Shown here: positions 267 to 40,584 of the stretch, piece by piece
How positions within the stretch are numbered: position 1 is the stretch's first letter
Layout: each line of letters begins with the position of its first letter
IMG/VR virus record: IMGVR_UViG_3300034151_000005
Coordinates: 1-42,988 of that record
Length of the DNA stretch: 42,988 nt
Reading direction: 5' to 3' (one strand)
Origin: a virus
Taxonomy: Duplodnaviria > Caudoviricetes
Notes under the pieces: model-generated
What the model was told of the DNA's origin: nothing
The model's input: only the letters and a program-made list of their open reading frames with translations
Databases searched by the model: none
Made by a program: the position numbers and the translations under genes

Positions 267-1532
267 TCATGCTCGCACCCCGAATCGCTCCGCATCGCCA
301 ACCCCCGGCAAGCGGATGAGTCGGCCCATCTGTACTTCACGGCGCAGCACCCGGTTGAGCGTCTGCACCGTCACGTCAGGCAGTTCCTCGGCGATCGCGT
401 CCCTAGTCAGGGGGATGTGCTTGACTGCCTGTCGAATCCGCAACGGCACCGGCAACTCAGCCGCCGCGTCGGGATCGTCCTGCAAGTCCATCGACGCGAA
501 CGTCGTGGACCCCTCCGTAAACGTCACGGCCACGCCTTGCGGCACGCGCCGGGCTGTGAGGTTCGCCTTGCGGTTGTGGAGCGCGAGCACGATGCGCCCG
601 TCCTGGTCGGGCTCGCCAGCGCGCACAAACCACGTCGCCCGCGCGCCGTTGTGCCAGAACGCGGATCCGAACGGCTTCTGGTCGCCGCCTTCCGCCTTGC
701 TGATGTGCGCCAGGTGCAGGCTCCCCACGCCTGCCGAGCGCGTCGTCTGGAGATACCGCTGCGCGGCTTCGGCGTCTTCCGGCTTGGTGTCACACGCGAA
801 CGCAATGGAGTCGCAGATCAGGTACCCGAGCCTGTCAACTCGTACCATACGCTGGACTTCGTCGCGCATATGCACCAGGGGCCGGTCGCAGCGCTTGTAC
901 CGGATGTCGGGCATGGCGCCGCCACAGATGGCTTCGAGGCGGACGCGATGATCGCCGCCGTCCAGCTCCCAGTCGAGGAGCCCGACCCGGATGCCCTGTC
1001 GGGCCAGTTCCGTCGCCATGTACAGTGCCAGATACGATTTACTCGATCCGCCGTCGCCAAACAAGATCATCGGATGCGCGAGCAACAATGGCACCCCCAG
1101 CACCGACACCGCCGCATCGCCTGTGGGCCGGGGGATGTCACGCAAGGACACCGACGGCGTCCCTGCTCGTTCCTCCGCCAGCACCCGCTGACACAGTTCT
1201 TCGATGAGCCCGACCCAGTCCACGTCGGGCGCCCGTGAGCGGTCCTGGAGGTGCATCGCGCGCGACTTGCGAGCGATGAGGCTCGACAGGTTGAAGTCGG
1301 CCACCGACAGCGACCCGCCCACCGTGCGCGCCCCCGCCATGTCGCAGTCCACCGCCAGTTCGCCGTTCAGTTCATGCCGCTCGCGGCGCAGTCTATCTAC
1401 CCTGAAACTTAGTCCCAAATCCTTAAGCGAGAAGACGTAGGCCTCGTTTTCCCGCCGAAACGTCCGTTTCGCGTCGTCGCTGATCATCGGCGCCGGCGCC
1501 GGCGCCTTGAAGGGACGTGCCGCTGCCGTCAC
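267..1532 (-). CDS. AAA_25/RepA-like replicative helicase-type ATPase with probable C-terminal winged helix
   Basis: Walker A FGDGGSSKSYL, LLDWELD, Walker B LICDS, HLAHISK...KPFGSAFWHNGAR; GTG start overlaps upstream stop (GTGA). Confidence 0.8.
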   Translation of the reverse strand: MTAAARPFKAPAPAPMISDDAKRTFRRENEAYVFSLKDLGLSFRVDRLRRERHELNGELAVDCDMAGARTVGGSLSVADFNLSSLIARKSRAMHLQDRSRAPDVDWVGLIEELCQRVLAEERAGTPSVSLRDIPRPTGDAAVSVLGVPLLLAHPMILFGDGGSSKSYLALYMATELARQGIRVGLLDWELDGGDHRVRLEAICGGAMPDIRYKRCDRPLVHMRDEVQRMVRVDRLGYLICDSIAFACDTKPEDAEAAQRYLQTTRSAGVGSLHLAHISKAEGGDQKPFGSAFWHNGARATWFVRAGEPDQDGRIVLALHNRKANLTARRVPQGVAVTFTEGSTTFASMDLQDDPDAAAELPVPLRIRQAVKHIPLTRDAIAEELPDVTVQTLNRVLRREVQMGRLIRLPGVGDAERFGVRA

Positions 1533-1987
1533 GCTTCGCCACCTGACCGCTGTCTGCTGCTGGCGAGGGCGGCGTCGATGATGGCATCACAACGGGCTGC
1601 GTCGGCCTCGACGCATGGCGCCGAATAGGTGTCAGGCACATCCCGGCATAGGTTCTCCCGCACCGCCACCAACGCTTCCCGCAGTAAGAGCACTTCAGCC
1701 TCCGCGTTGATGGCCCGCGACCGCTGTCCTTGCTCCTCCTCCAGCGACTGCCGCAGCCGCATAACCTCGGCCTCGGCCTTGATACGCCGTGCTTCCTTAC
1801 CACGCGCGGCCTTCTCCTGCTGGAGGGTGGTTATGGTCATGAAGACTTCCACGAGCGCCGCTGCGTCCGCTCGTATCTCATCCCACCCCTCCACCGTTAG
1901 GTCATTGAATAAACGGTTAAACGTATCCGTGTCGATGTGCGCCATCTGCTTCGACACAAACTCTCGTGCCATCTGCTCCGGGGTCAC
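1529..1987 (-). CDS. Hypothetical coiled-coil protein
   Basis: 152 aa, coupled by 4-nt overlaps at both ends. Confidence 0.7.
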   Translation of the reverse strand: MTPEQMAREFVSKQMAHIDTDTFNRLFNDLTVEGWDEIRADAAALVEVFMTITTLQQEKAARGKEARRIKAEAEVMRLRQSLEEEQGQRSRAINAEAEVLLLREALVAVRENLCRDVPDTYSAPCVEADAARCDAIIDAALASSRQRSGGEA

Positions 1988-2187
1988 GCCTGGCCGCCCG
2001 ACTGCTGCCGAAGCGTCAGGTCACGCAGTTGCGTGACCGCGAGGTGCAGGACGGTGCGATAGCCCTCGACCTCGCGCCGGAGGGCATCGCGTTCCTGCTG
2101 GAGTCGTTCGAGGTCGCGATCCATCTCGAGGAGGCGGCGCACCACTTCCTCGAGCATGGAGAGGTCAACTGTCGTCAGGACCGCCAT
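1984..2187 (-). CDS. Small coiled-coil hypothetical protein (67 aa, MAVLTTVDLS...)
   Basis: ATG at 2187 overlaps the upstream TGA (TGATG); heptad-like sequence. Confidence 0.7.
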   Translation of the reverse strand: MAVLTTVDLSMLEEVVRRLLEMDRDLERLQQERDALRREVEGYRTVLHLAVTQLRDLTLRQQSGGQA

Positions 2188-2252
2188 CAGTGCACCGCCT
2201 GTTCGGCGTTGACGTGGCGGGTCGTGCTGGTAGAATAGCGGGCTAGGTCCAT
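2187..2252 (-). CDS. Putative 21-aa leader peptide MDLARYSTSTTRHVNAEQAVH
   Basis: GGAGG RBS (2257-2261) 4 nt before ATG; stop overlaps the next start (TGATG). Confidence 0.55.
   Translation of the reverse strand: MDLARYSTSTTRHVNAEQAVH
2209..2236 (+). promoter_or_regulatory. Sigma70-type promoter on the antisense strand
   Basis: TTGACG (2209-2214), 16-nt spacer, TAGAAT (2231-2236), extended -10 TG at 2228-2229. Confidence 0.75.
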
Positions 2253-2321
2253 GGTGCCTCCGATGCACGATGGCGAATTGGTAAGGCGGCGCCCATGTTC
2301 TCGCATGTGGCGCCGTTTTTT
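2242..2321 (+). ncRNA. Putative ~80-nt antisense RNA
   Basis: Bounded by the promoter above and an intrinsic terminator; no complete ORF inside; complementary to the leader peptide RBS and start codon. The 5' end is estimated. Confidence 0.65.
2287..2321 (+). terminator. Intrinsic terminator on the plus strand
   Basis: CGGCGCC-CATG-ttctcg-CATG-t-GGCGCCG hairpin followed by TTTTTT (2316-2321). Confidence 0.75.
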
Positions 2322-3075: not shown

Positions 3076-3860
3076 CGTTCCACCTCCCACGGGGCCGGCC
3101 CAGCGCCTGAGAGCATGTCGTCATCGTCATCGTCGCCTGGCTCACGCTGAACGGCGCCCGTCTTCAGCACCTCGATCAGCGCGTCGTAGTCGCTGACCCG
3201 GATCGCCTTGCTGTTGTCGTAGCCGTAGCGGAGCAGGAGCGCCTTCACGTCATCGGCGCCCCACAACTGCTCTTTACTGATGGCATACAGGCGCTTGCGC
3301 TGCCCCTCGGTGATGACGCGCTCACTGCGGGCCGAGTCGGCAGGCGCGGCCATGAACTCCGCGATCTCCTGTTGCGTCTTCGTGGCCGTCTGGGGCTGCA
3401 CTGGGGGCGTGACTGGTGTTAGGCCCATGTGTGGCGCAGTGGCCGTCGCGGGCTTGCTCTTGGGCCGTCCCTGCGCGGCTTCCGCGTCGTCGTCCTCATC
3501 GGACACGACTCCCGCCAGCGCCGCCAGACCGTAGCGCTTGCAGTAGCTCGTGACGCTGCCAATGGACTGCGGCGAGGCATCCCGCGCGCGCGCGGTCAGG
3601 GCCGACGACACCCACTCGCCCGAACTGTGCGCGAGCGTCGTCGTGACCGTCACGAGCGCCTCGTCGGCACTGACGCCCTGCAGGATGGCGATGCCATTCG
3701 CGGACAGCGCTTCCCGGCACGCGCCGACGATGGCCGCGAGGTCGCTATACTTGCTCTTGAAGTGCGGGTTTTCGGCGTCCTTGCTGGCAGCCTTCATCAC
3801 GCCTTGGGCCTTGCTCAGCGCCTCGGCGAACTTCCCGATGGTCGGAGAGGTCTGCATCAC
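3072..3860 (-). CDS. erf: ERF-family single-strand annealing protein
   Basis: ALSKAQ...KDAENPHFKSKYSDL...LAHSSGEW...PQSIGSVTSYCKRYGLAALAGV...DDDAE. Confidence 0.9.
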   Translation of the reverse strand: MMQTSPTIGKFAEALSKAQGVMKAASKDAENPHFKSKYSDLAAIVGACREALSANGIAILQGVSADEALVTVTTTLAHSSGEWVSSALTARARDASPQSIGSVTSYCKRYGLAALAGVVSDEDDDAEAAQGRPKSKPATATAPHMGLTPVTPPVQPQTATKTQQEIAEFMAAPADSARSERVITEGQRKRLYAISKEQLWGADDVKALLLRYGYDNSKAIRVSDYDALIEVLKTGAVQREPGDDDDDDMLSGAGPAPWEVER

Positions 3861-4117
3861 GCCACCTCCGGCGCGAGCGTGATGGCGCGGCGCTCGAGGC
3901 CAGTGATGACGTCGTTGACGTCGCAGCCGCGCAGCCCGTCGAGCAGCCGCAGTGCCGCCACCGCGGCCACGTCGTACTTGACGGTTGGGTCAATCGTCAG
4001 CCCGTGCGTGAACTGCAGCGCCTGCAGCCCGCGCACGAGCCCCTGGTCGACCAACCCTTCGAGCAAGTCCGTCATGCGCGCGTCTTCCTGGCGTGGTGTA
4101 TAGTGCATCTGTTTCAT
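3857..4117 (-). CDS. Hypothetical protein (86 aa)
   Basis: ATG at 4117 after GGAAGG; stop overlaps the erf start. Confidence 0.6.
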   Translation of the reverse strand: MKQMHYTPRQEDARMTDLLEGLVDQGLVRGLQALQFTHGLTIDPTVKYDVAAVAALRLLDGLRGCDVNDVITGLERRAITLAPEVA

Positions 4118-4191
4118 GGCCTTCCAGCCCCCCATGGCTGTCTGAGAGAGCCGGCGACGTCGTTGAAGCGGCGTCCCGGCTCGTTTGTCGT

Positions 4192-4386
4192 TTACTCGAC
4201 GTCTATCGCGGCGATCGGTCGTCGCAACTCTGGACGTTCCCGCGTGCACTCCAGGCAGACGTACTCCTCTTCGTCTTCGAGTGAGTCATCAGGGTCAGCC
4301 AGCACTTCATCTCCGCACACGGCGCACTCTAGCCGTACCGGCTCGGTGCACAGTTCCGGCTCGTCTCGCGAATCCCAGCCGCTCAC
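4192..4386 (-). CDS. Small acidic CxxC-CxxC zinc-finger protein
   Basis: CAVC...CLEC; coupled to the upstream stop. Confidence 0.65.
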   Translation of the reverse strand: MSGWDSRDEPELCTEPVRLECAVCGDEVLADPDDSLEDEEEYVCLECTRERPELRRPIAAIDVE

Positions 4387-5057: not shown

Positions 5058-5264
5058 TTACGACGCCGGCACGTCATCGGGAAACGCCAGCTCAGGACGC
5101 ACGTCCAGGGCCGCCGAGATGCGCCGCACCAGGCGCCAGCTCGGGTTCGCGTTCTTGCCGGTTTCGATGGCGCTGAGCGTCGGCTGGGTCATCCCCGCCT
5201 TGGCGGCCAGCGCCACCTGCGTCAACCCGCGCGTCTTGCGGATGGTCTTGAGTGCGGAAGCCAT
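5058..5264 (-). CDS. Cro-like XRE helix-turn-helix regulator
   Basis: LKTIRKTRGLTQVALAAKAGMTQPTLSAIETGKNANPS; 68 aa with no peptidase domain. Confidence 0.9.
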   Translation of the reverse strand: MASALKTIRKTRGLTQVALAAKAGMTQPTLSAIETGKNANPSWRLVRRISAALDVRPELAFPDDVPAS

Positions 5265-5270
5265 GACCAG

Positions 5271-5299
5271 ACGATACGCCTGTGCGGTTATGTCGTCAA
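5271..5299 (-). promoter_or_regulatory. Early promoter, probably giving a leaderless mRNA
   Basis: Minus strand TTGACG-N17-TATCGT; only 6 nt (CTGGTC) between the -10 and the ATG at 5264; no RBS. Confidence 0.75.
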
Positions 5300-5459
5300 G
5301 GGGTATTTACGTAGGCGTGTACTATGCTTTGGTATAGTGGGCCGGCGGGGTGAGTGCGGCCGGTGCCCAGCCTACCGCCCTCAAGGGTCGCCCCGCCGTC
5401 GTCCGCACACCGCCGCCCGCAGAATTGCGAGCGCCACGGCGCCCCACTCGGACGTGCTG

Positions 5460-5729
5460 TCAGTCGACGCGCCGTACCGTCATCGCAGCGTAGGGATCGC
5501 TCGCGACGTCTTTGACTTCGGCGGTACTCGTCCCCGCATTGCGGAGGACGTTCTCGGTGGTGACCTGGGAGCGGAGGAAGACGGCCAGGATGGCATTGGC
5601 CAGCACGAGCACGGCGGCTTGCTGGTCCTGCGTCATGTGGCCGATGTCGAAGACGATGCAGACGCCAATGATGGACTGCACGAGCGCAATGATGGCGACA
5701 GGTTCGGTGCTAAACCCGAGTCGGCTCAT
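5460..5729 (-). CDS. Putative holin (2 TM)
   Basis: EPVAIIALVQSIIGVCIVF...QQAAVLVLANAILAVFLRSQVT pattern; GGAGA RBS; last gene of the late operon. Confidence 0.6.
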   Translation of the reverse strand: MSRLGFSTEPVAIIALVQSIIGVCIVFDIGHMTQDQQAAVLVLANAILAVFLRSQVTTENVLRNAGTSTAEVKDVASDPYAAMTVRRVD

Positions 5730-5869: not shown

Positions 5870-7480
5870 CTACCGCCGCCGCCGCTCGTCCTCGTCCCGC
5901 TGTGGGCGGCCGACTTGGCTCAGCGGCACGAAGGGCAGCAGGCCGTACTTGCGGAGGATGCTCACTAGCTTGTCGTCGGCGACGACGTAATTGCGAGTCA
6001 CACCACCGGACGCCTCGGCCGCCGCTTCCGCTTCGGCCTGCGTCGCGTAGGGCTGCATGGACCCCTTCACGAACCACTTGTCGCCGAGTTTATCGACGCC
6101 CGCCGTGATGCGCGAGCCTTGGTCGAGGTACTTGATGCCGGGGATGCCCATGTCTTTGAGCTGGCCAGCCACGCCTTCAGGGCCGACTGGGGCCTGTACC
6201 GCACCCTTTTGCCACAAGGCTTCCAGGCGATTCTGCATCTCCCGGTACAACTGCTCGCCGGTCGGGTCGTGGCCGAGTCGATGGTCGCTGAACCGGCCAA
6301 ACTCGCCCGAGAGCAAGTGCTTACGGGCGAAATCCTGCATGGCCTTCGGCTGCGCACTGAGCGGCTTGTCCCAGTCGAGGAACTGCTCCGGGTCCGCGTC
6401 GATGTTCACCTCGTACATCTTGCCGCCGGGCTTGATCGTCGTTTCGGCCTTCAATCGCTCCAGCGTATCCGCACGTCGTGACCAGAGTTGACGAGCGTCC
6501 GCCCCGCGCCATGTCATCTCGGCCTGTTCACGCAGCCCACGGATCGAGGTGTCGATGTCGCTGTCGCTCATAAACGCCATCGCGTCAAGTTCTTCCGGCG
6601 TGAACTTCCCTGAGGCGCGAGCGGCGTCTAAGCTGCCTTTCTTGACGCCCTTCATGCCGGCGGTGAGGTGCTCCCATGTCACGCCAGGAACACCACGGAC
6701 TTCGACTTCCATGGGTGACAGCGCATCGCGATAGCCCTTCGCCACGCCCTCGTGCTCCGCGAAGTAGAGCCCGTGCCCGTACGCCTGCGCGCCTTCGCCC
6801 GTCCCGATCTTCTCGGTCGAGAACTGGTCGAAGTCGTGCGGCGAGCCGTGATAGACCCGGATCGCGCCCGTCTCATCGCGCACGAGTTTCTGTGCGGCCT
6901 TCGACTGCGCCCCGCGAAGGCCGCCCTGCACGCCGAGACCGATCACGCCGCCGAGCACGGCCCCCCGCCCCGTCTCCATGGCCGTGCGCCACGGGTCGAC
7001 GGTGCCCGACTCGGCCAACTGCATCCCCGCTGACGAGGCCGCCGCTCCCGACACACCCGCCGCCAGCGCACGCGGCACCTGACGCAGCAACGGCGCCCCC
7101 CGCTTGAGCGTGGCCCCTGGAATGGGTGCGGTGGCCCCCGCCGCCAGCATTTCGAGCGGGTTGACCGACTCACGCACGCCTTGCGCCACCTCGCGCGACT
7201 GCGCCCACTCATCGCCCATCGCGGCGCCTGTGGCGGTTCCGGCGAAGGTGCCCACCGGGCCTGCGAGCGACCCGATCACGCCGCCCGCGATGCCGCCCCC
7301 GACCCGTGCAGCCAGATTGCCGCCCCACTCCCCCCACGTCTGCGGTGGTCGCTGCGCCTTGAGATGGTTGAGCACCCACGACTCAATCTGCGCGCCAGTC
7401 GTGCCGGCCGGAAACGACACCGGGCCGACGCCTTGCACGTCGACAATGATCGGCTCCGGCATCTTGCGCTTGTCCGCCAT
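5870..7480 (-). CDS. Probable ejected virion protein with a polyvalent-protein-type ADP-ribosyltransferase-like domain
   Basis: VYHGSPHDFDQFSTEKIGTGEGAQAYGHGLYFAE...MYEVNI...GIPGIKYLDQGSR...RNYVV; Gly/Ala-rich N-terminal third. Confidence 0.75.
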   Translation of the reverse strand: MADKRKMPEPIIVDVQGVGPVSFPAGTTGAQIESWVLNHLKAQRPPQTWGEWGGNLAARVGGGIAGGVIGSLAGPVGTFAGTATGAAMGDEWAQSREVAQGVRESVNPLEMLAAGATAPIPGATLKRGAPLLRQVPRALAAGVSGAAASSAGMQLAESGTVDPWRTAMETGRGAVLGGVIGLGVQGGLRGAQSKAAQKLVRDETGAIRVYHGSPHDFDQFSTEKIGTGEGAQAYGHGLYFAEHEGVAKGYRDALSPMEVEVRGVPGVTWEHLTAGMKGVKKGSLDAARASGKFTPEELDAMAFMSDSDIDTSIRGLREQAEMTWRGADARQLWSRRADTLERLKAETTIKPGGKMYEVNIDADPEQFLDWDKPLSAQPKAMQDFARKHLLSGEFGRFSDHRLGHDPTGEQLYREMQNRLEALWQKGAVQAPVGPEGVAGQLKDMGIPGIKYLDQGSRITAGVDKLGDKWFVKGSMQPYATQAEAEAAAEASGGVTRNYVVADDKLVSILRKYGLLPFVPLSQVGRPQRDEDERRRR

Positions 7481-7495: not shown

Positions 7496-8113
7496 CTACC
7501 GACGGCGCCGCATGAACCCCGCGCCCAACAGTCCCATGCCCATCAGCACGAGGCTGGCAGGCTCAGGGATCGGCGGTGGCGGGGGAGGAGGTGGAGGCGG
7601 TGGCGGGAAGCCGCTCGTGCGCTCGATCACGGAGTAGTGCGAGACGTCGTGCGCCACGCTCCCGCCCGACAGGTCAAACGGCGGCTCCGTGAACGGGGTA
7701 TTCCACAGGCCCGACGTCGCTTCCCCGTTGAAGAGGAACGCCACGAGGTTCGTATCGGCGCCGTCCTTGAAGACAATGGCGTAATCGGTCGTCGCGAAGT
7801 TCGCACCGACGATGGCCCACGTATCGCCAGGATTGAGCTGGAGCTGCCCGGCGTTGTCGGTCCAGTCACTGAAGCCGAAGAAGCCCGCGAGATTGATGTT
7901 CGTGAGGTTGGCCACGTTGGAGTTGTCGGGCGGGCTGATGTACTGACAGGCCGAGGTGGCCGTCTCCTGTGCGCCGTAGAACACCTTCGCGGTGCCATCG
8001 GTGACGAAGCTGACGGGACAATTGACGAGCGCCGCCTGTGCCGCCTGGCTCGAGGCCAGCAGCGACACGGCGCAGACGAGGGGACACACGAGGCGAGCGA
8101 GAGCGACACGCAT
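7496..8113 (-). CDS. PEP-CTERM sorting-domain surface protein (205 aa)
   Basis: Signal peptide ending AQAA, poly-Pro linker, IPEPASLVLMGMGLLGAGFMRRRR C-terminus; AAGGA RBS before ATG 8113. Confidence 0.9.
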   Translation of the reverse strand: MRVALARLVCPLVCAVSLLASSQAAQAALVNCPVSFVTDGTAKVFYGAQETATSACQYISPPDNSNVANLTNINLAGFFGFSDWTDNAGQLQLNPGDTWAIVGANFATTDYAIVFKDGADTNLVAFLFNGEATSGLWNTPFTEPPFDLSGGSVAHDVSHYSVIERTSGFPPPPPPPPPPPPIPEPASLVLMGMGLLGAGFMRRRR

Positions 8114-8389
8114 GGGAATCCTTCCGACGAGACCGAACGGTTCCACCGTCCGGGGTGTGAGTTGAGGGCGCTGGGTCAGACCAACCCAGCCATGACAGTA
8201 TCCACCACAGACCGACAATCGAGCCCACGCTCACCGTGAAGAGGTCGAGCAGGCTCATGAGTTCGCGCAACGATCACCCCCCACGCTTCACGAGTGTGCT
8301 ACTGTTGACGTCCCGGCAGGGATGGGAGCCCCTCACAGGGCAGGCGATGCCACCCACGCTATGACGATAGTGCTTTCCCTGCCGGTCAT

Positions 8390-21966: not shown

Positions 21967-21974
21967 GGCTGATA

Positions 21975-21996
21975 ACCATGTATTTCATGGTAAAAT
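21975..21996 (+). promoter_or_regulatory. Extended -10 promoter with overlapping inverted repeat upstream of the HNH gene
   Basis: TGgTAAAAT (21988-21996); ACCATG-tattt-CATGGT (21975-21991). Confidence 0.55.
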
Positions 21997-37470: not shown

Positions 37471-37764
37471 CTAGTGTCCGTCGGCCACAGCACGGCTGTC
37501 AAGCGACGCCAGCTCGGCGACGATATGCGCCAGCGCATCGTAGGGCTTCAGCATCCCCGCGTTGACATCCCGCACCGCGGCCGCCATCACCGACCGGAGG
37601 GCCCGGTACTCCTGCACTTCGCGGGCGAGCGATTCGATCTCGTCGCCGTTGATGTATGGCCCGAACTCACTGCCATCAGCGTCCCGCACGCGCCAGCCTT
37701 CAATGTCGCCAATGACATCGGTCAAGAGCGCCACCTGTGCGTCGGTCAGTGTCACGCCATCCAT
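37471..37764 (-). CDS. Hypothetical protein between TerL and portal
   Basis: 97-aa ORF overlapping the TerL-C end. Confidence 0.55.
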   Translation of the reverse strand: MDGVTLTDAQVALLTDVIGDIEGWRVRDADGSEFGPYINGDEIESLAREVQEYRALRSVMAAAVRDVNAGMLKPYDALAHIVAELASLDSRAVADGH

Positions 37765-38483
37765 CCACTGCCCCCATGAAACGCCTGCGTGGGATTGTAC
37801 GGCTTCGGCACCGGCTTGGTGCGTGCCCGATCCAGCCCGCTCACGACCAAGTAGCGCGTCGCGTCCTGCAAGTGGTCGTGCTCCTTCACAATCCGCCCGC
37901 GCTCGTCGCGCCGATACAACCGGTACTCGTCAAACCACGGCCCGCATGACGCGAACACCTTCAGTTTCCCCGCCGACAGCCGCTCCCACACCCGCTGGAT
38001 CCCAGCCTCGACGGCCTTGTCTGGCAGTTCCACGTCAATCCCGAGGTCACCGTAGATCTGCATGAACGAGCGCCCATCGTAGGCGTTAATCGCCGCCGCA
38101 TCGCCCACCCCGCGGATCCACTCCCCGCGCGCCTTCACGGCCTCGGCATGGACCGGCGGCTCGACCTGGCCCCGCTTGTACACGCTGTAGATGTAGAGCA
38201 CGTCGACGTCCCGATCCCAGGCGCCCCACACGGCAGCCGTCCACTCCCAGCCGGTATCCATGCCAAATGCGCGCGGCCAGTGCGTCGGGATCTCGAAGTC
38301 CGACACCTTCACATCGTCTTCGCTGACTTGATAGATGGCGCCAGAGCCGAGTTGCGGGATGCCCTTGGACCGTGCGTCTCGCTGATACGGCGGGATGCTC
38401 GCCCACAGCGAGTCCCGCATGTCCATCGTGAGATGCGGCGCGTCATCCCAGGTCGCCGTGACTACGTATCGAGACACGGCCAT
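37752..38483 (-). CDS. terL: Terminase large subunit, C-terminal (nuclease) fragment
   Basis: WDDAPHL...RDARSKGIPQLGSGAIY...FGMDTGW...DHLQDATRY; AGGA RBS. Confidence 0.88.
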   Translation of the reverse strand: MAVSRYVVTATWDDAPHLTMDMRDSLWASIPPYQRDARSKGIPQLGSGAIYQVSEDDVKVSDFEIPTHWPRAFGMDTGWEWTAAVWGAWDRDVDVLYIYSVYKRGQVEPPVHAEAVKARGEWIRGVGDAAAINAYDGRSFMQIYGDLGIDVELPDKAVEAGIQRVWERLSAGKLKVFASCGPWFDEYRLYRRDERGRIVKEHDHLQDATRYLVVSGLDRARTKPVPKPYNPTQAFHGGSGWMA

Positions 38484-38674
38484 TCCTGGGGCGGTGGTCG
38501 AGTCGTACCGCGTGGCACCTTCAGCTTAAGCGCCTTCCCGCAATACGGGCAGAACCGATAACCGTGCTCGGCCGGCGTGCCCACATCCCACGCGATGTTG
38601 CGCTGATCGCATCCGGTGAAATACGTGTCGCCTTCTAAGTAGTCGGAGTCATAGGTCCACTCGCATTCAGTCAT
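38462..38674 (-). CDS. Small zinc-ribbon protein between the TerL halves (70 aa)
   Basis: MTECEW...GC...FCPYCGK. Confidence 0.65.
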   Translation of the reverse strand: MTECEWTYDSDYLEGDTYFTGCDQRNIAWDVGTPAEHGYRFCPYCGKALKLKVPRGTTRPPPQEWPCLDT

Positions 38675-38715
38675 GCGGCTTCTCCATGGATGCGCCCACC
38701 GGGCAGGAACGACAC
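38671..38715 (-). repeat. Orphan duplicate of the last 15 codons of TerL-N (copy of 38826-38870)
   Basis: Encodes the same SFLPGGRIHGEAA*; the three internal differences are all synonymous. Confidence 0.9.
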
Positions 38716-38718
38716 GGC

Positions 38719-38829
38719 TTATCTCGCCTGCATCCAGTAGGCCGCCAGCAGCAAGCCACCCACCACGACGATGAGCGTCCAGATCGTGCTGATATGGCGC
38801 TCGCGCTCGCGCTGTTCCCACGGGGTCAT
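38719..38829 (-). CDS. 36-aa single-TM protein between the TerL halves
   Basis: MTPWEQRERERHISTIWTLIVVVGGLLLAAYWMQAR; ATGA-coupled to the TerL-N stop. Confidence 0.65.
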   Translation of the reverse strand: MTPWEQRERERHISTIWTLIVVVGGLLLAAYWMQAR

Positions 38830-39509
38830 GCGGCTTCCCCATGAATGCGCCCACCAGGCAGGAACGACAGCACGAGCGGCGTCAGTCCCATTAAGGGTGT
38901 GAACGTCATCGCGATCATCCCACCGCCGACCATCGTCCGTAGCAGACACTCGGTGTAGATGTCCTCAGGCGGCTCTTCGTCGAGGTGGATCATGTCCTGC
39001 TCGGTGCCCTGGAACGCCTCTCGCCTCTGGTCGTACGACTTGAGCTGTAACACCGACAGCCCGCCCGTGATGTGGCGCACGTACACGCTCTCGATGGCGT
39101 CAGGCAGCCCCGCCTTCGCGGTCTTGCGCTCAATGAGGTGCTCGGGGATGAAGCCGGTCCCCTCTTCGCCTGGCCGCCCGAGGTACGCCTTCTGCAAGAT
39201 GTCGCGCGTGGTCTTGCCGGTATCGCCTGCGGCCCACATGGACACCGGCTTGTCGAAGCGCCGGCCATCCCACCACGGCGCGAAGTAGTCGTACATGCCG
39301 GTCAGGTGAAGCGCGCACTCGTACGCCGCGCACTGCGTCTTGCCCACGCGGTTGGCCGCAATCATCAGGCGCTCGCGATGGTCCTTGCCGGCGCGCATGA
39401 ACGCGCGGTGCTTGTCGTAGCCGTCCCACGAGTACGTCAGGAGTGGGTACGCAAGGCGACGCTCCACCTGCTCGAGCAGCGCGATGTCGTCGTCTCGCGT
39501 CTCGAGCAT
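38826..39509 (-). CDS. terL: Terminase large subunit, N-terminal (ATPase) fragment
   Basis: Walker A AANRVGKT, Walker B IHLDEEPP, coupling motif TFTP; ends GEAA*. Confidence 0.9.
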   Translation of the reverse strand: MLETRDDDIALLEQVERRLAYPLLTYSWDGYDKHRAFMRAGKDHRERLMIAANRVGKTQCAAYECALHLTGMYDYFAPWWDGRRFDKPVSMWAAGDTGKTTRDILQKAYLGRPGEEGTGFIPEHLIERKTAKAGLPDAIESVYVRHITGGLSVLQLKSYDQRREAFQGTEQDMIHLDEEPPEDIYTECLLRTMVGGGMIAMTFTPLMGLTPLVLSFLPGGRIHGEAA

Positions 39510-40368: not shown

Positions 40369-40584
40369 TCAGTGCGCCGGCCGCTTGGAGGGGGGTCGCT
40401 GGACCCCCTTCTCGGGGACGAGGGTGACGTAGAAGCCTTCCATCAGTTCGTCTTGGCGCTCGAGGATGCGCGCGGCATCCTGTCGGGACAGCAGGATTTT
40501 GCACCACGCTTCGCCGTCGCGGTCAGCCCCGATGCAGGACTGCCCGCCGGCCAGTTGCGCGAGGAAGCAGAGCGGGTCACTCAT
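40369..40584 (-). CDS. Hypothetical protein (71 aa)
   Basis: ATGA-coupled start (MSDPLCF...). Confidence 0.55.
   Translation of the reverse strand: MSDPLCFLAQLAGGQSCIGADRDGEAWCKILLSRQDAARILERQDELMEGFYVTLVPEKGVQRPPSKRPAH

Follow-up and report, generated by a model that had tools for sequence, protein, structure and literature searches.

In the phage analysed here, a short RNA predicted from the plus strand (RNA 1, about 80 nt, 2242–2321) covers the SD sequence and start codon of a 21-aa leader open reading frame (ORF) that heads the replication genes, and it probably acts as a cis-antisense throttle on those genes, in the manner of CopA/tap or sar. The window is the whole stretch of DNA that was analysed, 42,988 nucleotides of a virus record whose 127-bp terminal repeat makes it a circle of 42,861 bp (66% GC). 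The predicted promoter and terminator, the complementarity, the chain of overlapping stops and starts and the recurrence of the layout in relatives can be read from the sequences themselves, and RNA 1 is very probably made.

All annotated genes lie on the minus strand. A PHROGs profile search of 70 selected ORFs identified P22-type portal, head, head-closure and ejection proteins as well as ERF, a 3’-5’ exonuclease and a single Cro-like HTH protein. Pfam and PHROGs searches of the phage found no tyrosine or serine integrase, no S24-type repressor and no ParA, in agreement with the sequence-only reading, which had described a phage lacking CI and integrase. Scans with PF00589 and PF07508 (integrase/recombinase) matched 0 of 5 records and scans with PF00717 (S24-type CI) and PF13614 (ParA partition ATPase) 0 of 4, in a set where G411 and G408 are incomplete and with profiles that divergent or RNA-based systems would escape. 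The host group may be Acidobacteriota, because relatives of the phage helicase are found mostly in Acidobacteriota genomes; among GenBank phages, neither the helicase nor the exonuclease had a match. Soil and sediment DNA runs contain this phage sequence, none of the 24 runs listed for it being an RNA run, and contigs from three of them (X4, X5 and X9) cross the RNA region with zero differing letters, while those of run X6 reach only 2311 within it.

The antisense promoter (2209–2236, plus strand) is located within the leader ORF and combines a -35 TTGACG (2209–2214), a 16-nt spacer and an extended -10 with TG at 2228–2229 and TAGAAT at 2231–2236. It is the sole 10/12 consensus match on both strands of the 42,861-bp circle and thus the genome’s best sigma-70 promoter. 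The intrinsic terminator (2286–2321, plus strand) consists of a bulged GC stem (2286–2316) and a T6 tract (2316–2321); its z score was -4.59, none of 200 shuffles folded equally well, and the built-in terminator scanner missed it, probably owing to the bulged stem. With its start placed by promoter spacing, RNA 1 (approximately 2242–2322) is predicted to form two hairpins with a folding energy of -38.4 kcal/mol (z = -3.90), which 1 of 200 shuffles equalled. The first of these (2249–2273) holds the anti-SD in its loop (2258–2264), where 4 of the 5 bases have unpaired probabilities of 0.93–1.0, and the anti-start codon in its stem. Both the minus-strand SD, GGAGG at 2261–2257, and the ATG at 2252–2250 fall within the predicted RNA, so the complementarity claimed by the sequence-only reading agrees with the coordinates. 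The promoter and terminator pair it described was also recovered, and its strength is hard to match by chance: of 200 genome copies shuffled block-wise by dinucleotide, with a terminator window 40–220 nt downstream, 34 contained a 9/12 promoter with any terminator, 3 a 10/12 promoter with any terminator, and none a 10/12 promoter with a strong T6 terminator.

Facing the antisense promoter is a predicted weak sense promoter, TTGCGC-17-TAGAGT (2358–2330, minus strand), with a score attained by 1% of 3000 random positions. The two promoters are about 90 bp apart, and the predicted sense start (approximately 2323) coincides almost exactly with the 3’ end of RNA 1. The sequence-only reading had overlooked both this promoter and a second unit at 4099–4193. 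Two other modes of action for the region were considered and set aside. Attenuation of the pT181 type was rejected, there being no minus-strand terminator near the leader. Action of RNA 1 on many start sites was not convincing, as only 1 of 22 non-cognate sites (ERF, -34.2) plus the 7480 gene reached the pass mark, set at the 5th percentile of background; among 10-mer matches in the genome, none extended to a complementary site of at least 12 nt elsewhere.

The leader (2187–2252, minus strand) encodes a hydrophilic peptide. Its 3’ part is predicted to fold so that the SD-like AGGCGG of the following gene is enclosed in a hairpin, with unpaired probabilities of 0.0–0.1 at four bases, and such a hairpin over the next SD is what a tap-like leader would require. 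The next two genes encode putative products: a 67-aa coiled-coil-like protein (1984–2187, minus strand) with one relative at 88%, and a 152-aa protein (1529–1987, minus strand) whose codon-position GC resembles that of the other genes. In-frame extensions of the 67-aa gene to 124 aa (TTG at 2358) and of the leader frame to 69 aa were considered and rejected; relatives of the 67-aa protein have the short start. None of the Atlas look-alikes of this protein, or of the 86-aa protein described below, scored as high as 0.9.

The fourth gene of the chain (267–1532, minus strand) encodes a 421-aa AAA_25-like protein, the AAA_25 match (E 1.8e-5) lying below the curated cut-off. Its structure model (pLDDT 93, confident) matches RecA and DnaB folds, and the protein is likely to be the replicative helicase; a PDB sequence search with the helicase profile returned no match. 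Beyond it lie TGTCCG/CGGACA repeats (16–222), predicted iterons that extend over the circular junction to approximately 42825. That iterons follow the helicase, as had been proposed, is borne out by the concentration of 15 of the genome’s 46 hexamer copies within 1–240, and these repeats are likely to be the origin.

The leader overlaps the 67-aa gene by 1 nt, the 67-aa gene overlaps the 152-aa gene by 4 nt, and the 152-aa gene overlaps the helicase gene by 4 nt. The junctions of the proposed unbroken coupling chain are therefore as described, but the chain alone proves little because 8 of the 11 gene junctions in the early operon overlap. Strong independent initiation of the downstream genes had been named as evidence that would count against coupling; these genes do possess SD-like sites, of -7.1 (67-aa gene), -5.8 (152-aa gene) and -5.9 kcal/mol (helicase), the helicase’s own SD being weak, and such sites weigh against the proposed throttle.

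In the mechanism we propose, host polymerase would make RNA 1 constitutively from the plus strand. The RNA is complementary along its whole length to the 5’ part of the replication-gene mRNA; pairing would begin between its anti-SD loop and the loop of the SD hairpin and would block ribosome loading on the 21-aa leader. Translation of the leader would open the hairpin over the SD of the 67-aa gene; if the leader were not translated, this SD would stay folded and less would be made of the downstream products, the helicase among them. The effect could reach the helicase by lost coupling, by Rho-type polarity or by RNase III cutting of the duplex, routes that are familiar from CopA/tap and OOP. 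Because two genes intervene, overlaps are common and the helicase has a weak SD, we are less sure of translational coupling alone across the three junctions than of polarity or duplex-triggered decay. Output from the weak sense promoter would be silenced by RNA 1, while the strong early transcript from 5299 would titrate it, producing a delay. More genome copies would yield more RNA 1 and less helicase synthesis, which would amount to a dose-sensing threshold.

Control of replication by an antisense RNA and a leader is textbook knowledge for plasmids. The arrangement resembles that of plasmid R1 (IncFII), where, as outlined in PMC12361487 and PMC5415839, the cis-encoded antisense RNA CopA lies over the leader region of CopT/tap/repA; R1 also has a short leader ORF coupled to the replication genes and, as is predicted here too, combines a long upstream transcript with a local promoter. 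The predicted RNA 1 gene likewise lies in cis over a replication leader, but the setting is a phage rather than a plasmid, RNA 1 directly covers the leader SD and start codon, and a RecA-fold helicase stands two genes past the leader (other initiator families take this place in relatives). A direct overlap of leader stop and initiator start is found in the related phages L216 and G412. Searches here gave no IncFII RepA initiator, no CopB and no Rfam CopA match; the protein is AAA_25, with a RecA-DnaB fold.

P22 sar, according to PMC12197685, is a phage antisense RNA of 68–69 nt whose pairing with the target prevents the start of translation. RNA 1 is similarly short and spans a translation start, with SD and ATG both inside 2242–2321, but the target of sar is the antirepressor gene ant and the target here is the 21-aa replication leader; among the 70 ORFs scanned, no antirepressor had a PHROGs match. 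The Rfam sar model gave no match at E up to 10 or at the gathering score. As for C4, it had no Rfam match either, and RNA 1 as a whole is without a family match, its top entry, ctRNA_pGA1, scoring 15.8 bits (E 2.2) where the cut-off is 45, which is chance level. Across the window and 13 related loci, nothing besides tRNAs and one int-alpA RNA elsewhere reached an Rfam gathering score. The CopA/tap- or sar-like circuit of the sequence-only reading thus stands as a cis-antisense layout over a leader heading replication genes, not as membership in any of these RNA families.

Other antisense systems share parts of this layout. Lambda OOP RNA pairs at the 3’ end of the cII mRNA, while RNA 1 covers a start site and stops 38 nt short of the upstream gene’s stop. 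The likeness between the two lies in features outlined in PMC12197685, in which OOP is a 77-nt cis-antisense phage RNA that adjoins replication genes, pairs with cII mRNA and brings about RNase III decay of its target. Short counter-transcribed RNAs also block translation of a replication gene in pMV158 (ctRNA II; outlined in PMC12361487) and of transposase in IS10/IS200 (outlined in PMC8450116). The ctRNA_pGA1 of Rfam is a plasmid countertranscript as well, whereas a leader ORF is interposed here. An early or replication operon is also under RNA control in P4, whose CI RNA acts from the same strand as its target through short matches. The c4 RNA of P1/P7, as sketched in PMC12197685, is of this same-strand kind too, whereas RNA 1 would be a true opposite-strand RNA.

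A second antisense unit (4099–4193, plus strand) is predicted upstream in the same early operon. It has a -10 TATAGT (4099–4104) with no good -35, a 5’ hairpin and a terminator (4148–4193), its z score is -3.70, and it covers the SD and ATG of an 86-aa gene (3857–4117, minus strand) that overlaps the start of the ERF gene; its RNA would run from about 4111 to 4190. The distance from TATAGT to the T-rich tail, 79 nt, equals that of unit 1, and the early operon’s two widest gaps, 106 and 74 nt, are each occupied by one of the units. Unit 2 would likely act on the recombination genes as unit 1 does on the replication genes. In L162, where the 86-aa gene is 53% alike, a TG-n-TAAACT box stands at the aligned position 77 nt from the tail; the anti-SD loop is kept and the sequence of the terminator stem differs. 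L222 carries a unit similar to unit 2. A stretch of L216 (3700–3810) has a possible likeness to it, but the T tract of its hairpin is on the sense strand. Scans of viral contigs for the exonuclease and the 86-aa gene (single or two-row queries) gave no match.

The layout of unit 1 recurs before replication genes in related phages. In L216/L163 it lies directly before a PHROG replication initiator whose start is overlapped by the stop of a 13-aa leader, and it comprises an antisense TAGAAT, an anti-SD loop, a -28 kcal terminator and a sense promoter TTGACA-17-TAAAAC. In G412 an 18-aa leader overlaps the PHROG initiator, with an antisense TG-n-TACTAT, an anti-SD loop and a weaker terminator that the strict detector missed; another unit lies ahead of the recombination genes of this phage. 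A search by DNA pattern only brought up the unit of L312/G411, which turned out to belong to a phage sharing the capsid and portal PHROGs; the gene under this unit is of the HNH family and overlaps an initiator gene. The initiators behind these units belong to families unrelated to the AAA_25 helicase. The leader peptides of different units share no sequence outside the -10 box, as would be expected if translation of the leader matters and the peptide does not. Conservation in related genomes, the check named by the sequence-only reading, was thus seen in layout for L216/L163, G412 and L312/G411, but no replication unit was found in L162 or in G003, G283 and L217–L221, several of these last being fragments. 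The initiator module of L162, the relative nearest by exonuclease, is not preceded by a unit, and the exonuclease stop there abuts the next gene.

The frequency of such units was estimated in several ways. A pattern scan of viral contigs returned 42 stretches, 32 of them distinct; in 26 of the 32 the terminator did not exceed -13.5 kcal/mol in strength, so that they were taken as chance, and 6 had terminators of -20 kcal/mol or better, two of which had shaped the pattern. Among the four new strong matches (L312, L291, L292 and L307), L292 was set aside as uncertain for a -10 that doubles as a stop codon and L307 for having no start codon at SD distance. In L291 (2458–2576), a sense promoter, an antisense unit and the 182-aa ORF that this unit covers form an insert adjoining the head genes of a different phage, and the insert looks like a self-regulated mobile gene. 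A strict detector, built from the units themselves and finding one match in 17 of 100 shuffled genomes and two in 1 of 100, located a strong unit antisense to early genes in 5 of 13 phage records or loci; G001 gave two weak matches, and none was seen in G003, G283 and L217–L221, several of which are fragments. The detector also matched at L319 1309 (minus strand; G411:21309), a second match in G411 that falls in the structural region. Of 75 short coupled ORFs with an SD, gathered from 27 records or loci, 5 had an antisense -10, and 3 of those 5 head replication genes. An exact-motif scan of viral contigs matched only L013, a chance occurrence at the lysis-gene start of an unrelated phage. Exonuclease matches in Acidobacteriota genomes (26 of 401) were chromosomal-looking except for G283 and yielded no further unit.

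The strand of the RNA is suggested by the folds themselves. In 13 units the predicted stems contain 38 G-U pairs when read from the antisense strand and 11 when read from the sense strand, and the antisense strand is the more stable in 10 of 13 (p = 0.09). Many units have a poor -35, and as a group they are too divergent for a usable MAFFT alignment.

Antisense transcription could itself be the regulator, the strong plus-strand promoter interfering with or occluding the weak facing sense promoter as happens between the convergent promoters of phage 186. The geometry described above, in which the promoters face each other and the terminator reaches to where sense transcription is predicted to begin, suits this explanation, and sense promoters with a TTGACA -35, stronger than the one here, occupy the equivalent place in L216, L312, L291 and G412. 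The anti-SD in a hairpin loop, present in most phage units, is a feature of RNA pairing that interference would not need, and the unit 2 counterparts of L162 and L222 have no clear facing promoter. We therefore regard interference as an improbable explanation of the layout.

Silencing of an early product toxic to the host, whether the leader peptide or the protein of 67 or 152 aa, in the manner of type I toxin-antitoxin or kil/icd-like systems and with replication control as an incidental result, is quite improbable. In its favor, the leader in this phage precedes two genes for putative products rather than the helicase, and genes unconnected with replication lie under unit 2 and under the unit of L291. 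The leader is hydrophilic and unconserved, unlike the small hydrophobic toxin under antisense control that defines type I systems, and the L216 and G412 leaders run straight into the initiator with no candidate toxin between them.

Genome loci of the same helicase family extend the layout beyond phages. In 73 of 80 loci analysed (7 were left out), 6 strict antisense units were found within 1 kb upstream of the helicase against 0.28 expected from the other distance bins (p = 5e-7). With the -10 filter dropped, the 1-kb upstream bin held 13 antisense versus 2 sense matches, and the other antisense bins held 0–6; 2 of the 8 units found in this way do carry a -10, against a background of 2.9% (p 0.02). 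These units surfaced only after the demand for a -35 was dropped, and when a near-consensus promoter was demanded, no antisense pair lay in the 1 kb upstream of helicase relatives. Viral helicase loci (38 of 55 tested) showed no enrichment, with 0 in the -1 kb bin. Of 14 integrated-element loci, 10 have a covered ORF (22–229 aa) overlapping the start of the helicase gene, and 7 have the TGTCCG/CGGACA hexamer after the helicase. Among 11 unit-bearing loci, 6 carried an integrase or serine recombinase and two a capsid gene (52 of 118 ORFs scanned). The presence of the unit, the helicase family and the hexamer in integrase-bearing loci indicates that this predicted replicon is common to the phage and satellite-like elements. 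In one such element, L102, the Rfam int-alpA RNA (4129–4193) lies upstream of an AAA_25 element that also bears an antisense unit. Promoter-terminator pairs on the helicase strand of L083 (about 1246–1400) and L022 (2312–2400) may be other small RNAs.

This shared replicon raises the prospect that the unit is a leftover, acquired together with the helicase and iterons from a satellite-type element and without a role in a purely lytic cycle. The helicase family, iteron hexamer and upstream unit that are common to integrase-bearing elements, and the fact that L162 manages without a replication unit, speak for such an origin. Against it stand an intact terminator, a promoter that no other in the genome equals, the occurrence of units ahead of non-homologous initiators in other phages, and the further unit preceding the recombination genes; we give an idle remnant little credence. 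It is very improbable that no RNA is made and that a chance promoter in the gap accompanies a hairpin acting on the mRNA as a stability or processing site, for although 10/12 promoters occur about 0.5 times per shuffled genome, the strong pair occurs in none of 200, the T tract and G-U pairs indicate the plus strand, and the layout recurs in relatives.

If the antisense throttle on replication operates as proposed, lytic-looking phages without CI or integrase would carry RNA feedback on replication, which could set timing, sense multiplicity or permit a carrier state and would bear on predicting phage lifestyle from genomes. A literature search that covered subscription papers thinly found no report of an antisense-plus-leader cassette gating tailed-phage replication genes. 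New are the predicted facing sense promoter, the second unit, the cassette before unrelated initiators and, in integrated elements, the unit ahead of the helicase family. The cassette, some 170 bp in length, can be recognised by its layout and not its sequence and is missed by Rfam; the unit 1 promoter is near enough to the sigma-70 consensus to be testable in a standard reporter strain. A wider and doubtful extension would be that a P22-like clade, likely of Acidobacteriota, has dropped CI and integrase for an RNA-only switch, in which two antisense RNAs gate recombination and replication, plasmid-type copy and incompatibility control permits extrachromosomal persistence and kin exclusion, and the portable cassette is shared with integrated satellites and has been attached to unrelated replication modules. 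Extrachromosomal mycobacteriophage prophages with RNA-based origins are described in PMC7157519, but these carry parABS.

Several further features of the genome were observed. The Cro-like HTH gene and the early promoter (5299–5271), together spanning 5058–5299 (minus strand), stand at the head of the early operon; within 5299–5264 only 6 nt separate the -10 from the ATG, and the message of the Cro-like gene is likely to be leaderless because of this spacing. Pointing away from the Cro-like promoter is an extended -10, TG-n-TATAGT at 5333 (plus strand; region 5330–5460), which opens into an ORF-less gap of 120 nt at the site of CI in lambdoid phages and may be a remnant or a further small RNA. 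The terminase large subunit (37752–39509, minus strand) appears to be in pieces, with PHROG matches at 38826–39509 and 37752–38483 separated by a 130-aa ORF (38462–38854), a possible intron, insertion or split gene. A PEP-CTERM protein gene (7496–8218, minus strand) encodes a host-type surface protein that is unusual for a phage, and a 536-aa virion-region protein (5870–7480, minus strand) has a weak match, below the cut-off, to ART-PolyVal, the ADP-ribosyltransferase of polyvalent proteins. An extended -10 promoter-like site at 21969–21996 (plus strand) is antisense in the tail region, with no terminator seen downstream, and a very strong hairpin occupies 40385–40415 within the late-early region.
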